A stretch of DNA of 64,000 nucleotides from IMG/VR virus record IMGVR_UViG_2974528200_000001, positions 1 to 64,000 of that record; one strand, written 5' to 3'. Shown here one piece after another: positions 46,933 to 55,227 of the stretch. Both the position numbers and the translations under genes were made by a program. The stretch comes from a virus (lineage: Duplodnaviria; Caudoviricetes). The stretch's first letter is position 1. The number at the start of each line of letters is the position of its first letter. Under the pieces are notes generated by a model. That model had not been told where the DNA came from. It saw nothing but the letters and a program-made list of their open reading frames with translations, and did not search any database.

Positions 46933-46939
46933 TCGTCTG

Positions 46940-47012
46940 TGCCCCCTCAGGGCCTCGATCCCTGGACCCGCGGTTTAAAAGACCGCTGCTCTACCAACTG
47001 AGCTAAAGGGGC
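46940..47012 (-). tRNA. tRNA-Lys(TTT), no encoded CCA end
   Basis: gcccctt/agggggc acceptor; gcggt-ctTTTaa-accgc; atypical T-loop atcgagg. Confidence 0.85.
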
Positions 47013-49166: not shown

Positions 49167-49200
49167 GCAACCCCCGCCTAGTACGTTAGGCGGGGGTTGC
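49167..49200. terminator. Bidirectional terminator between convergent genes
   Basis: gcaacccccgccta/taggcgggggttgc; A-run upstream, T-run downstream. Confidence 0.7.
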
Positions 49201-49582
49201 TTTCTTCATTTCCGGGTCCGTATTTGACATCCGAGATGAATGTCCGGATCAGTTCGTCGATGGCCTTGCGTTGCCGGCTGGTCAGGACTTCCGAACCTAC
49301 CGGCGGTTCGTAGGGCGGCGAGGCTGCGTCCCAGTTCTCGCCGAGCCAGTCCAAGACCTTCTTGACGTTCATGCCCAAGGCCTCGGCGACACGCTCAAGC
49401 GTCTGTCGCTCAACGAGCCTCGGGTCCGCCTTGCCGGTGATAAGTCGGACGACGGTGGTCGTGTGCAGACCAGCTTCCTTGGCCAGAGCGTTGAAGCTCG
49501 GGTCACCGGTCCGTGGATTGGTGAGACCCTGCTTCAGCATCGCTTTGGCCCAGGGCTGCGGTACTTCAGTGGTTTGTCTCAT
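49178..49582 (-). CDS. Immunity repressor-like HTH protein
   Basis: SFNALAKEAGLHTTTVVRLI helix-turn-helix; near int, divergent from early operon. Confidence 0.75.
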   Translation of the reverse strand: MRQTTEVPQPWAKAMLKQGLTNPRTGDPSFNALAKEAGLHTTTVVRLITGKADPRLVERQTLERVAEALGMNVKKVLDWLGENWDAASPPYEPPVGSEVLTSRQRKAIDELIRTFISDVKYGPGNEESNPRLTY

Positions 49583-49651
49583 AGTGCCGACTAGTGTCTC
49601 ACGCACAACTGCACGCGTCAACAACTGTTGTCAGTGACACAAGCTATAGTG

Positions 49652-49687: not shown

Positions 49688-49924
49688 GTGTCAGATAGCA
49701 AGCAAGACATTAAGGTTGGTGACGTCGTCACTATCGGTTCCTGGGGCTACCGATGGACAGTCACCGGCTTCAAGCTCTCCCCATTCTCGGGGGGCCGTAA
49801 AGCCGTTCTCACACGAGAGCAGGAGCGTGGCTACCGTCACGGAAACGTCGGCAAGGCTAAGTCCGCGGCGGTCATCCGGACCCGTGTAGCAGTCGATACA
49901 TTGGTCAAGGAGGAGTCCAAGTGA
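49688..49924 (+). CDS. Small hypothetical protein
   Basis: AAGGAGG SD; IKVGDVV start. Confidence 0.65.
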   Translation: MSDSKQDIKVGDVVTIGSWGYRWTVTGFKLSPFSGGRKAVLTREQERGYRHGNVGKAKSAAVIRTRVAVDTLVKEESK

Positions 49925-50958
49925 CGACACCCTACGACCTCCTCGAGACCGGCGCGATCATCAACGGGCGCGCACAGGTCATCGGCAAGTTCGACAACGG
50001 TTCCCCCGAGTGGCATGCCGCTCGCCGCGGTCACGTCGGCGGTTCCGAGATCTCCGCGATCGTCGGCCTGAGCCCGTTCGAGTCCCGGTTCTCCCTGTGG
50101 CACCGCAAGAAGGGTGAGCTCGAGGACGTCGAGGAGACCCCAGCCATGGAGTGGGGCACCCGCCTCGAGCCAGTGGTCTACCAGAAGTACTCCGAGTCCC
50201 TCGAAGAGGATGAGTTCATCACCACCGGACACACCTTCCGGTGCCTGATCCCCGGACGTGGCTGGATCAACGCCAACCCCGACGGCATCGTCTGGGCACA
50301 GACCGAGGACGGCGAGTGGTACATCCGCCGGGTCCTCGAGATCAAGACCTCGGCCCGCGGCGAAGGCTACGGCCCGAATGGCAGCGACGGCATCCCGATC
50401 TACTACCGATGCCAGGTGCTGTTCTACATGTACTGCCTCGGTGTAAAGCAGGCCGATCTGGCCGCGCTGATCTCCGGTGTCGACTACCGCACCTACAAGG
50501 TCAACTACAGCACCGAAGACGTCGAGTTCCTCATGAACGCCGGCGACAAGTTCATGCACGAGCTGAATAACAACATCCTGCCCGACATCAGCAAGGACAG
50601 CGCCACCTACGAAGCGGTGCGCCAGATCAACCCCGAACTGGACCCGGACCTCGAGGTCGTCGTCCCGACCCAGCTGGGGGAGTTCTACCGCTCGGTCGAG
50701 GAGGCCTACCGCGAGATCAAGGATCTGCGCAGCGGTCTCCACGCCGAGATCCTCGATCATGTCGGGCCCGCCCGCGTGGTCAAGCTCGAGGACGGCGAGG
50801 TCCTGGCGCGTCGACAGATGCCTGGCCGCGGCGACAAGCCGTACCTGCGCTACGTGCCGGCCAAGAAGCCCGAGCAGGTGAGCGTCATGGACGCCTACGA
50901 GAAGGAACAGGACCGGCAGGAACGCCTCGCAGCGATGTACGCCCCGGCGTCTGTCTAA
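49921..50958 (+). CDS. YqaJ/RecE-like exonuclease
   Basis: EW...RR..VGGSE, G..LE, ANPDG, LEIKT, Y..Q. Confidence 0.9.
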   Translation: MTTPYDLLETGAIINGRAQVIGKFDNGSPEWHAARRGHVGGSEISAIVGLSPFESRFSLWHRKKGELEDVEETPAMEWGTRLEPVVYQKYSESLEEDEFITTGHTFRCLIPGRGWINANPDGIVWAQTEDGEWYIRRVLEIKTSARGEGYGPNGSDGIPIYYRCQVLFYMYCLGVKQADLAALISGVDYRTYKVNYSTEDVEFLMNAGDKFMHELNNNILPDISKDSATYEAVRQINPELDPDLEVVVPTQLGEFYRSVEEAYREIKDLRSGLHAEILDHVGPARVVKLEDGEVLARRQMPGRGDKPYLRYVPAKKPEQVSVMDAYEKEQDRQERLAAMYAPASV

Positions 50959-50965
50959 TCTCTAG

Positions 50966-50994
50966 TTGACTCCAGTGGACACATGACGTAGGCT
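50966..50994 (+). promoter_or_regulatory. SigA-like promoter TTGACT-N17-TAGGCT
   Basis: Sequence at 50966-50994. Confidence 0.65.
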
Positions 50995-51050
50995 GATGGA
51001 GTCAGACAGAGAGAGACAAACAACTGTCTAACCTCTAACTGAATAGAGAC

Positions 51051-51222
51051 TTGTGGATGGTGGCGTCAAGCTCACCCCTCCTGGTTCAAATCCCATTAAT
51101 CCGGGGCTTGCCATAGGCCATCAGGCAGGGGAGGTAAGGACGCCTGGCAACACCCTTCCCCGGTGTGCCTGCGGGATTTCAGAGTTCCTTTAGCTCGACG
51201 GCTCCTGCGTCACCACCCACAA
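51051..51222 (+). ncRNA. Structured RNA candidate, unit 1
   Basis: Outer stem ttgtgg.tggtggcg/cgtcacca.ccacaa; three conserved blocks shared with unit 2. Confidence 0.6.
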
Positions 51223-51230
51223 CAACACTT

Positions 51231-51446
51231 GCGACGCCGGCGTCAAGCTCGCCCCTCGGAGTGCATCCTGTCCCTTTCCAGGATGCAGGGTCTGCATAGC
51301 CCAACTCCGCTCCGACCGGGATGTAAGGACGCCTGACGGTAGAGCCATAACGACACCGTCCACGCGAGGGCTACCCACCCTCGTGGCCGTTGCTCCCGTC
51401 TGCAGAACCGCAACATTCTGCTCGACGGCTCCTGCGCCGGCGTCGC
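51231..51446 (+). ncRNA. Structured RNA candidate, unit 2
   Basis: Outer stem gcgacgccggcg/cgccggcgtcgc; same three blocks. Confidence 0.6.
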
Positions 51447-51458
51447 CACAACCCTCCA

Positions 51459-51490
51459 CATGAAGGTCCGAGTACCGCGAAGCGGATTGA
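51459..51490 (+). repeat. Start-associated motif, copy 1
   Basis: catgaaggtccgagtaccgcgaagcggattga. Confidence 0.75.
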
Positions 51491-51546
51491 ACCATCCGGG
51501 AAAACCTAACAGTTCAAAACACAAGAGAGAAGAGGAGATTCAACAC

Positions 51547-51900
51547 ATGGCACGAATCAAACAGGAACGGATCGACGCGGCCCTGGAAAGCATGGGGCGC
51601 GAGATCGACCACCTCACCAGCCGGGTCGACATCCTAGCCAGCGCGGGCACCGGCCAGAGCAAGGCCATCAGAGAACTCACTGCGAGCGTCGACCACGTTC
51701 GGAAAGCCGTGCTCACGATCCTCAAAGAGATCAACAGCAGCCCCGGCGTGATCGAGGAGGAGCTCTACCCAGCCGGCCTCAAGCTCGAGCTTCTCACCAT
51801 CTTCAACGGCGAGATTTACCTCGCCAAGGAGGCCTACGAGTGGGTCACCGACGACGAAACCCTGACCGACAACACCGAGGAGGACCACACCAGTGTCTGA
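51547..51900 (+). CDS. Coiled-coil hypothetical protein
   Basis: ATG after GAGGAG. Confidence 0.7.
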   Translation: MARIKQERIDAALESMGREIDHLTSRVDILASAGTGQSKAIRELTASVDHVRKAVLTILKEINSSPGVIEEELYPAGLKLELLTIFNGEIYLAKEAYEWVTDDETLTDNTEEDHTSV

Positions 51901-52576
51901 ACTCCAGCAAGCCTCGCAAGGCCAGGCCTCAGCAGGCCCAGTCCAGGTCATCTACAGCCACGCCAAGGAGATCCAGAACGTGCTCGAAAAGGGCACCGAC
52001 ATGGACCGCTGGCTGCAGATGGCCCGACTCGCCGTCATGCGTGACCCCAACCTCGTCAACGCCGCCAAGCGCGACCCCGGCTCGCTCATGCAGGCCATCC
52101 TCGACTGTGCCGAGAAGGGACACATCCCCGGCACCGAGGACTACTACCTCGTTCCCCGCAAGGGTGGCATCCAGGGCATGGAGTCCTGGAAGGGGATCGC
52201 CAAGCGCATCATGCGTTCTGGTCGCTACCAGTCGATCGTCGCCGAGGTCGTCTACGAGGGTGAAGAGTTCGACTTCAACCCGAACACCATGGACCGACCG
52301 GTACACAAGATCAACTACATGGCCCGCACCTCCGGCGCACCGGTCATGTCCTACGCCTACGCCGTCGACCACGAGGGCAAGCCGTCCACCGTGGCCATCG
52401 CCGACCCGCGTTACATCGCCAAGGTCAAGGCCAACTCACGCGGCACCGTCTGGGCCGACTGGGACGAGGCGATGTATCGCAAGACCTCCGTCAAGATGCT
52501 CGTCGACTACGTCGACACCTCCTCGACCGACCGTCGCGATGTGTCTACCGTCGAACTGGATGGTGGTGAGGTGTGA
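51893..52576 (+). CDS. recT: RecT-like ssDNA annealing protein
   Basis: P.SL..A...CA..G..PG...YLVP; VYEG.EF; W..W..M..KT. Confidence 0.88.
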   Translation: MSELQQASQGQASAGPVQVIYSHAKEIQNVLEKGTDMDRWLQMARLAVMRDPNLVNAAKRDPGSLMQAILDCAEKGHIPGTEDYYLVPRKGGIQGMESWKGIAKRIMRSGRYQSIVAEVVYEGEEFDFNPNTMDRPVHKINYMARTSGAPVMSYAYAVDHEGKPSTVAIADPRYIAKVKANSRGTVWADWDEAMYRKTSVKMLVDYVDTSSTDRRDVSTVELDGGEV

Positions 52577-53064
52577 GGCCTGGGCCGAAGTCGAAGCCCC
52601 TACAAGAGCGCCTGCTCAGCAAGATCGCGACCACCGATTCTGGGTGCTGGGAGTTCACCGGCTCCCTGGAACCCAGTAGCTATGGCCGGGTCTGGAGTGG
52701 GGGTGAGGGCGGTCGCATGCTATGGGCCCACCGCGCATCCTGGGTTGTCCATCGAGGCGAGATTCCAGACGGGATGTTTGTGTGCCACGCGTGCGACAAT
52801 CCGCCGTGCGTAAACCCTGACCACCTGTTCCTTGGTGACCACAAGGACAACATGGCAGACATGGCCAGGAAGGGGAGATTCAACCTGCCCAAACTACGAG
52901 GTGAGTCGCACCCCGGTCACATGCTCACTAAGCAAGATGTCCAGGAGGTCCGAGCGCTCCACTCCGAAGGGGTATCCAGTCGGCGACTCGGTGAGCTCTA
53001 CGGAGTCAGCAAGACCTCGATCCTTAACATCATCAACCGGAAGACATGGAGCCACGTCGCATGA
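52573..53064 (+). CDS. HNH endonuclease with C-terminal HTH
   Basis: GCWEF.G, AHR.SW, VCHACDNPPCVNPDHL. Confidence 0.9.
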   Translation: MRPGPKSKPLQERLLSKIATTDSGCWEFTGSLEPSSYGRVWSGGEGGRMLWAHRASWVVHRGEIPDGMFVCHACDNPPCVNPDHLFLGDHKDNMADMARKGRFNLPKLRGESHPGHMLTKQDVQEVRALHSEGVSSRRLGELYGVSKTSILNIINRKTWSHVA

Positions 53065-53847: not shown

Positions 53848-53878
53848 CATGAGGTCCGAGTGCCGCGGAGCGGATTGG
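53848..53878 (+). repeat. Start-associated motif, copy 2
   Basis: catgaggtccgagtgccgcggagcggattgg. Confidence 0.75.
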
Positions 53879-53899
53879 ACACCACAGACAAGGAGAACC

Positions 53900-54963: not shown

Positions 54964-55164
54964 GTGGCCATCCGTCTAATGTCTAACGCATCACAAGAGT
55001 GTGAGTTCGCCACCTTGTTCCAGGCCTGCAACAGTCCAGCCGAGTACGAGGTCACCTATCGATGGTGGGGGCGGAAAGTATTCTGCGCCAGTCACTTTCA
55101 CGAGATGAACACTGACGGCGACAGGCATGTACTAAGTGTAGCCGCCGCGCTGACTCAGGCATGA
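54964..55164 (+). CDS. Small Cys-rich hypothetical protein (start uncertain)
   Basis: C....C..PA......FC..H. Confidence 0.5.
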   Translation: MAIRLMSNASQECEFATLFQACNSPAEYEVTYRWWGRKVFCASHFHEMNTDGDRHVLSVAAALTQA

Positions 55165-55190
55165 GGTCCGAGCACCGCGGAGCGGATTGA
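55160..55190 (+). repeat. Start-associated motif, copy 3
   Basis: catgaggtccgagcaccgcggagcggattga. Confidence 0.75.
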
Positions 55191-55227
55191 CATCCACAGA
55201 ACACCACAACAAGGAGGTCGCAAACAC

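Follow-up and report, generated by a model that had tools for sequence, protein, structure and literature searches.

Phages of actinobacteria have few characterized regulatory RNAs, and their hosts, to our knowledge, lack the classic Hfq chaperone. Among phage RNAs in general, one likeness in layout is to the C4 antisense RNA of P1 and P7 and the CI RNA of P4, branched RNAs of the early operon that present target-reading loops on a scaffold. A positional likeness is offered by the put antitermination RNA of HK022, which consists of two hairpins and sits just after an early promoter or stop codon. Cuckoo RNAs are small RNAs with loops that are C-rich or complementary to the Shine–Dalgarno (SD) sequence, termed anti-SD loops. 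In Staphylococcus aureus RNAIII (PMC2837412) and actinobacterial 6C RNA, pyrimidine-rich hairpin loops, several to a molecule, can pair with ribosome-binding sites, and the RNA described here is alike in both respects.

The RNA lies in a window of 64,000 nucleotides, taken from a virus record with a full size of 91,510 bp. The region is 86% identical to Gordonia phage OneUp and matches it along its entire length, and cluster-CQ1 phages match piecewise; on sequence comparison, the source is a Gordonia phage of the cluster-CQ type. The gap that holds the RNA has a RecE-like exonuclease gene on one side (49921..50958, + strand; phrog_434, E 5.5e-81) and an operon with RecT and ThyX on the other. 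Between the RNA and the RecT-like gene (51893..52576, + strand; phrog_148, E 6.4e-60) is an open reading frame of 117 amino acids (51547-51900) for which a Pfam search returned no match. Upstream of the gap are an integrase, an HTH repressor (49178-49624, minus strand), RtcB, and five tRNA genes. The minus-strand tRNA that adjoins the integrase (46939-47012) is called as Lys(TTT), where OneUp has tRNA-Met(CAT), and is likely an attP-linked tRNA differing among close relatives. Between recT and thyX is an HNH endonuclease gene (52573-53064), in the place of which OneUp has a short hypothetical gene.

The gap opens with a promoter, and the hexamers reported in the initial annotation at 50966-50994 are indeed present. 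They form a sigma-A-type sequence on the + strand, TTGACT-17-TAGGCT, with the hexamers at 50966 and 50989 and a 17-nt spacer. The −35 box and a TANNNT −10 box are kept in OneUp, the CQ1 phages, and a metagenomic relative (L025), and the promoter resembles six right-end promoters of the same genome; a generic promoter scanner did not call it. It probably drives both the RNA and the downstream early operon. An operator-like repeat (50951..50969, + strand) overlaps the −35 box and has a second copy at 51024-51042, and through it a repressor may control the RNA promoter. The repeat, with the core CTGTCTAA, is found in the window at 50951, 51024, 54972, and 59907 and is kept in OneUp and Culver. 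A structured motif of ~31 nt, an element separate from the RNA units, stands ahead of three SD-led early genes (51459-51492, 53848-53880, and 55160-55192) and has three copies in OneUp and Culver too; it is possibly a cis regulator or processing signal.

The RNA itself consists of two units on the + strand. Unit 1 (51051..51222) has a closing stem, P1, a three-way junction, and variable P2 and P3 domains, and unit 2 (51231..51446) has the core of unit 1 with larger variable domains. Both outer closing stems are present as first described, formed by 51051-65 with 51208-22 in unit 1 and by 51231-42 with 51435-46 in unit 2, and the folding z-scores are −2.1 and −4.7, respectively. Three blocks shared by the units were likewise correctly placed: A at 51062 and 51239, B at 51129 and 51318, and C at 51193 and 51420. 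Block B has two occurrences in the window compared with 0.15 expected by chance, and no further copy of any block is found in the 91.5-kb genome at 2 mismatches. In unit 1, block A (51062..51080, + strand) provides the top of P1, the invariant UCAA junction strand (51066-51069), P2a, the CR loop, and CCC. Block B (51129..51146, + strand) provides the 3′ strand of P2, the junction A, and the 5′ strand of P3. Block C (51193..51209, + strand) provides a kink-turn-type bulge-GA strand, whose partner GA is degenerate, followed by the 3′ strand of P3, the junction G, and P1. Unit 2 has the geometry of a canonical kink-turn (51335..51425, + strand), in which GA at 51335-51336 is opposite a 3-nt bulge and GA at 51421-51425.

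These assignments change some of the pairings that had been proposed. The register in which blocks A and B pair is different: the GY of block B is the partner of the two bases that directly follow UCAA, and next come a 3 × 2 internal loop and CCC/GGG. The pairing between B and C is P3, and its bulged C is confined to this window and OneUp. A suggested UCAAGC/GCUCGA pseudoknot is possible essentially in the CQ lineage only, and both strands have other conserved roles; block C supplies the kink-turn bulge and GA, which displaces the pseudoknot. The variable domains, described as unrelated in sequence, are not entirely so; the P3 domain of unit 1 shares a hairpin-UGC-hairpin layout with the single unit of the CQ1 phages. 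Two units are present in OneUp and L025 and one in 13 CQ1 records, and within these CQ-type relatives alone, position 4 of P3 alternates among A-U, G-C, and U-A.

A search for relatives, as the initial annotation had suggested, finds ~55 distinct homologous units, spread over CQ phages, elements that resemble satellites, and further prophage-like contigs of actinobacteria. Relatives whose closing stems are intact (L029, L039, L047 with two copies, L050-L053, and L055) came from pattern scans of viral, genome, and metagenome collections. Hits in which closing stems are absent (L008-L013, L028, L030, L032-L038, and most of L056-L070) were discarded as chance matches. Covariance model R1 was built from the non-CQ pattern-scan relatives alone, yet it recovers both window units, at 49 bits (E 3.8e-10) for unit 1 and 34.7 bits (E 4e-6) for unit 2. 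R1 also finds four copies in one Aeromicrobium metagenome-assembled genome (MAG) and 12 further usable copies across samples of actinobacterial genomes. Because a strict sequence pattern has this MAG as its sole match among 301 genomes, strict patterns overlook most members; with ~22 candidates scored per genome, the frequency in genomes is at least a few per cent. In a final viral scan, 14 of 16 loci are true, with 22 model hits and arrays of two, three, and four units. Locus L040 is doubtful and left out of the counts, and loci L108 (unpublished genome G713) and L129 (G149) underlie no claim.

The case for the RNA had been made to depend on covariation among homologs, and covariation is found. 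Across 26 diverse units, 92% of cells are paired and 15 of 22 pairs are compensatory, which none of 500 shuffles matches, though these figures lean favorable, with the structure having guided the alignment and the sequences being relatives of one another. Slid registers of the same units likewise fall far short of the observed pairing. The core begins with P1 ending in GCG and continues through UNAA, a 2-bp helix, a 3 × 2 loop (NCR over AN), CCC/GGG, and A to P3, which begins with WGG/CCW and is followed by one G and CGC. The first pair of P2 alternates among G.U (11), C-G (8), and A.C (5). The defining elements of a kink-turn, namely a C-stem, a 3-nt bulge, and tandem G.A/A.G pairs, are found in P3; the register is seen in 12 of 26 units compared with 0.8 expected, and the exact geometry in 11 of 26, including unit 2 of the window, and is degenerate in unit 1. 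What the units have in common is a three-way junction, and P3 frequently carries a kink-turn. Covariation and geometry show each unit folding independently, with a closed 12-13-bp stem, the invariant junction, and often the kink-turn arm. Rfam 15 scans of the window and short distant members, a check proposed at the outset, matched no known family and gave chance-level matches only, none above the gathering threshold. A literature search in which subscription journals were thinly covered found no paper describing the RNA. Judged from the aligned sequences, the structured RNA family, carried by phages and phage parasites of soil actinobacteria and often in tandem, is real and uncatalogued in Rfam; the original view of a scaffold-plus-cargo noncoding RNA family outside Rfam is upheld by the covariation, the lack of an Rfam match, and arrays with different loops.

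The 26 units share 14 invariant core positions, located at the junction or close to it, as might be expected if the core bound a ligand or were catalytic; examples would be a distant c-di-GMP-I-like fold that serves as a sponge for a signal and a unit that cleaves itself. The c-di-GMP-I (GEMM-I) aptamer (RF01051/RF03167) has a similar three-way junction, CG/CG closing of P1, and purine J2/3; in both, P2a is 2 bp long and leads into an internal loop and then CC/GG. The two differ in J1/2 (4 nt here versus 6 nt), the loop (3 × 2 versus 3 × 3), and J2/3 and J3/1 (1 versus 2 nt). The GNRA tetraloop and its receptor are absent here, neither model scores the other family, and the RNA is not positioned as a 5′ regulator of signaling genes, so membership in the riboswitch clan is not supported. 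With Rfam scans giving no ribozyme family as well, a ligand-binding or catalytic core is quite improbable. Aptamers of the c-di-GMP-I type are themselves commoner than expected, occurring in 62 of 151 actinobacterial-phylum genomes, some of which are unpublished. Two other candidates were rejected. The Streptomyces sRNA Scr2736 (RF02831) has a weak partial likeness to the P2 arm (16 bits, E 1.2), but it is not homologous: the junction core is missing, R1 scores ~7 bits on real Scr2736 loci, and the models do not match mutually. For a bacterial Y RNA, no Ro60/TROVE gene (PF05731) is found in the genome, and ARAGORN is silent at the units, indicating no tRNA-like module.

The variable loops are rich in pyrimidines, with 72% C+U in P3 loops compared with 50% in controls. 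Unpaired CCUUUC is found in 7 of 26 units versus 0.2-0.3 expected under two nulls, and unpaired UCCUU and UUCCU in 6 of 26 each versus ~1 expected, counts that are not independent as members are related. CCUCC and the anti-start-codon CAU are not enriched in the loops of these 26 units. An energy of −5 kcal/mol or lower for pairing with a consensus SD is predicted for 77% of units and 25% of controls. The loops thus display the unpaired anti-SD words that mark trans-acting anti-SD sRNAs, and many members are without them, especially arrays L146-L149 and L136. In the window, unit 1 has pyrimidine-rich, anti-SD-like segments (51153-51161 and 51185-51191, within 51153..51191, + strand). The P2 hairpin loop of unit 2 (51271..51279, + strand) carries CCUUUC at 51273-51278, the exact complement of GAAAGG-type ribosome-binding sites, and is identical in OneUp. 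Actinobacteria have the same extended 16S tail as Bacillus subtilis. CCUUUC matches the extended tail reported for that species (PMC6107228). Pairing of the loops with the unit’s own surroundings is not favored; a unit’s 600 nt of flanking sequence is no better a source of targets than foreign flanks are (mean rank 0.58). Kissing between P2 and P3 loops gives 3.6 bp for own loops versus 3.7 bp for foreign loops, and a ring RNA like phi29 pRNA, which calls for complementary loops, was rejected.

UCCUU and UUCCU are also the sequences at which the mycobacterial toxins MazF-mt3 and MazF-mt6 cut (PMC5408214), and other mycobacterial toxins are reported to remove the anti-SD (PMC12274833, PMC12620021). 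The RNA could then act as a decoy for, or inhibit, host toxin nucleases whose cut sites are in the 16S anti-SD or in tRNA loops, which would suit a phage that encodes RtcB and tRNAs. The MazF words overlap the anti-SD word, so their enrichment does not separate a decoy from antisense pairing. Three CU-starting loops had been likened to anticodon loops, but none fits YUNNNRN, and unit 2 of OneUp has not retained their triplets. The satellite-like elements examined are without RtcB, and a decoy that can itself be cut does little to inhibit an enzyme acting catalytically. A toxin decoy is unlikely.

Candidate targets for the CCUUUC loops are GAAAGG ribosome-binding sites, which are concentrated in the leftward genes of the right end (9/16 in this genome, 8/18 in OneUp, and 5/20 in Culver) compared with genes elsewhere (4/128, 4/123, and 0/136, respectively), as counted from gene starts of our own simple caller. 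With coupled genes controlled for, the contrast is kept for free-leader genes of this genome (9/11 versus 2/54). In two Gordonia phages that do not carry the RNA, such sites are few and dispersed (3/157 and 7/148). They are absent from structural genes and from the RNA’s own operon in this genome, OneUp, and Culver; given their rarity also in phages without the RNA, absence from its own operon is no evidence of avoidance. The right-end block, at 84.3-90.6 kb, is beyond the window and has repeated strong promoters. Six repeated TTGAC-17-TAGRCT promoters lie on the minus strand at 88342-90399 of the full genome (G000), where the genes of the block mostly have GAAAGG-type sites. By analogy with other actinophages, the right-end genes are presumably expressed first. 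When all predicted start regions are scanned with a correction for accessibility, the energies are modest, mostly −6 to −10 kcal/mol, with no strong target conserved across all three CQ genomes, and the pairings between loops and ribosome-binding sites are just 6-8 bp.

Genomic context bears on whether the RNA acts in trans or in cis. At L029, L102, L104, L106, L107, and L140, it comes after genes for capsid, head-tail, or terminase proteins in satellite-like elements, and in several such elements it is the final feature ahead of a terminator-like hairpin. That position leaves no gene to control in cis and argues for a trans role. In the Aeromicrobium MAG, a 7.4-kb PICI-like island (L097, 9700-17125) with genes for an integrase, a primase-polymerase, a helicase, and a probable terminase small subunit has the RNA at its end, and three more degraded ends carrying the RNA are found in the same MAG. 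Other positions suit a cis-acting element of the nascent transcript, that is, a put-like antiterminator, polarity suppressor, or mRNA stabilizer whose junction would contact RNA polymerase, a Nus factor, or a nuclease. The start is within 25 nt of an upstream stop codon in 18 of 29 non-CQ members versus 7% of random positions, and the window pair, ~50 nt past its promoter, leads a long early operon. A coupled start codon (123-nt spacing) begins a reading frame that stays open through the whole of arrays L143 and L149 and into the next gene, as it does in L148 save for a 1-nt shift, and arrays held in an open reading frame are more easily explained by a cis role than by a trans role. The gene that follows is RecE-like in L143 and L148, and the L143 array is fused to it. 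Read through, these arrays make a repetitive N-terminal extension of the next gene (L143 755-1002, L149 2728-3086, and L148 8180-8683). Copies at the far end of satellite-like elements do not fit a cis element, which also leaves the anti-SD enrichment and diversified tandem copies unexplained, and the Rfam scan gave no HK022 put-type match; this explanation is possible but rather doubtful. Of the functions listed in the initial annotation, antisense or guide RNA is the best fit and antitermination a live rival, the anticodon decoy is not supported, and a ribozyme has no positive evidence.

The RNA adjoins RecE/RecT genes in the CQ phages and at L136, L143, and L148, as arrays or pairs. A programmable guide array, in which the scaffold would load a RecE/RecT-linked or host protein and the loops would address nucleic-acid targets, would account for this and for the constant scaffold, variable loops, and short linkers. 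RecE/RecT genes are near 3 of 32 non-CQ loci, many of which are short, compared with capsid, terminase, or satellite genes at no fewer than eight, and two Gordonia phages have RecE/RecT without the RNA. Loop lengths also vary, and the flanks hold no long loop complement, leaving a guide array only a small chance. Location directly after stop codons, four dispersed copies in one MAG, and in-frame readability could also describe a REP- or MITE-like sequence without a function as RNA, whether a selfish insertion element or a structure formed by single-stranded DNA, and the strand bias of G.U versus A.C is weak (17 versus 13). The dispersed copies reside in satellite-like DNA or its remnants, neither a shared transposase nor a target duplication is seen, and the CQ position is orthologous. 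The kink-turn register and the G.U/A.C wobble swap are features of RNA, and a selfish DNA element is highly improbable.

The reading we prefer, tentatively and with somewhat less than even weight, is a modular trans-acting antisense repressor of translation with multiple targets, built on a constant scaffold. It draws on the invariant core, the freely varying loops and their anti-SD enrichment, the concentration of GAAAGG sites, and the arrays of 2-4 units whose loops differ between units. The RNA would form the leader of the recT operon, transcribed from the early promoter under repressor control, and the units may be separated by cleavage at short C/A-rich linkers. The junction probably binds a protein or makes a nuclease-resistant core. 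The variable loops, whose complementarity to purine-rich ribosome-binding sites is observed, would pair with them and block initiation. In CQ phages, CCUUUC loops would act on the GAAAGG sites of the promoter-led right-end genes for a timed shut-off, and host or rival-phage mRNAs with such sites may be hit too. Satellites would aim the same scaffold at helper-phage or host mRNAs, and arrays would widen the target set. A covarying family common to phages and satellites, with exchangeable loops on a constant core, suggests a layer of translational control or of conflict that has gone unstudied. Laboratory phage collections are well stocked for work on it, with cluster CQ phages that infect Gordonia terrae. 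If the loops are reprogrammable, the RNA would provide a compact gene-silencing scaffold for actinobacteria.

The family itself is new, and its likeliest way of working is already known in kind. A stronger claim, that phages and satellites share a programmable RNA of a new class, with a fixed protein- or polymerase-binding junction and interchangeable guide loops, deployed in conflict among phage, satellite, and host as arrays, some of them translated in frame to begin a RecE-like protein, is one we consider rather unlikely. The C4 and CI antisense RNAs are set apart by the different core, the missing Rfam match, and the lack of cis targets in the flanking 600 nt. The put RNA has two hairpins instead of a three-way junction, whereas the present RNA is also found at the ends of elements, in arrays, and in actinobacterial hosts. 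In contrast to RNAIII, Cuckoo, and 6C RNAs, it is without an Rfam match, presents its variable loops on an invariant three-way junction with a kink-turn, and is carried by phages and satellites in tandem arrays.
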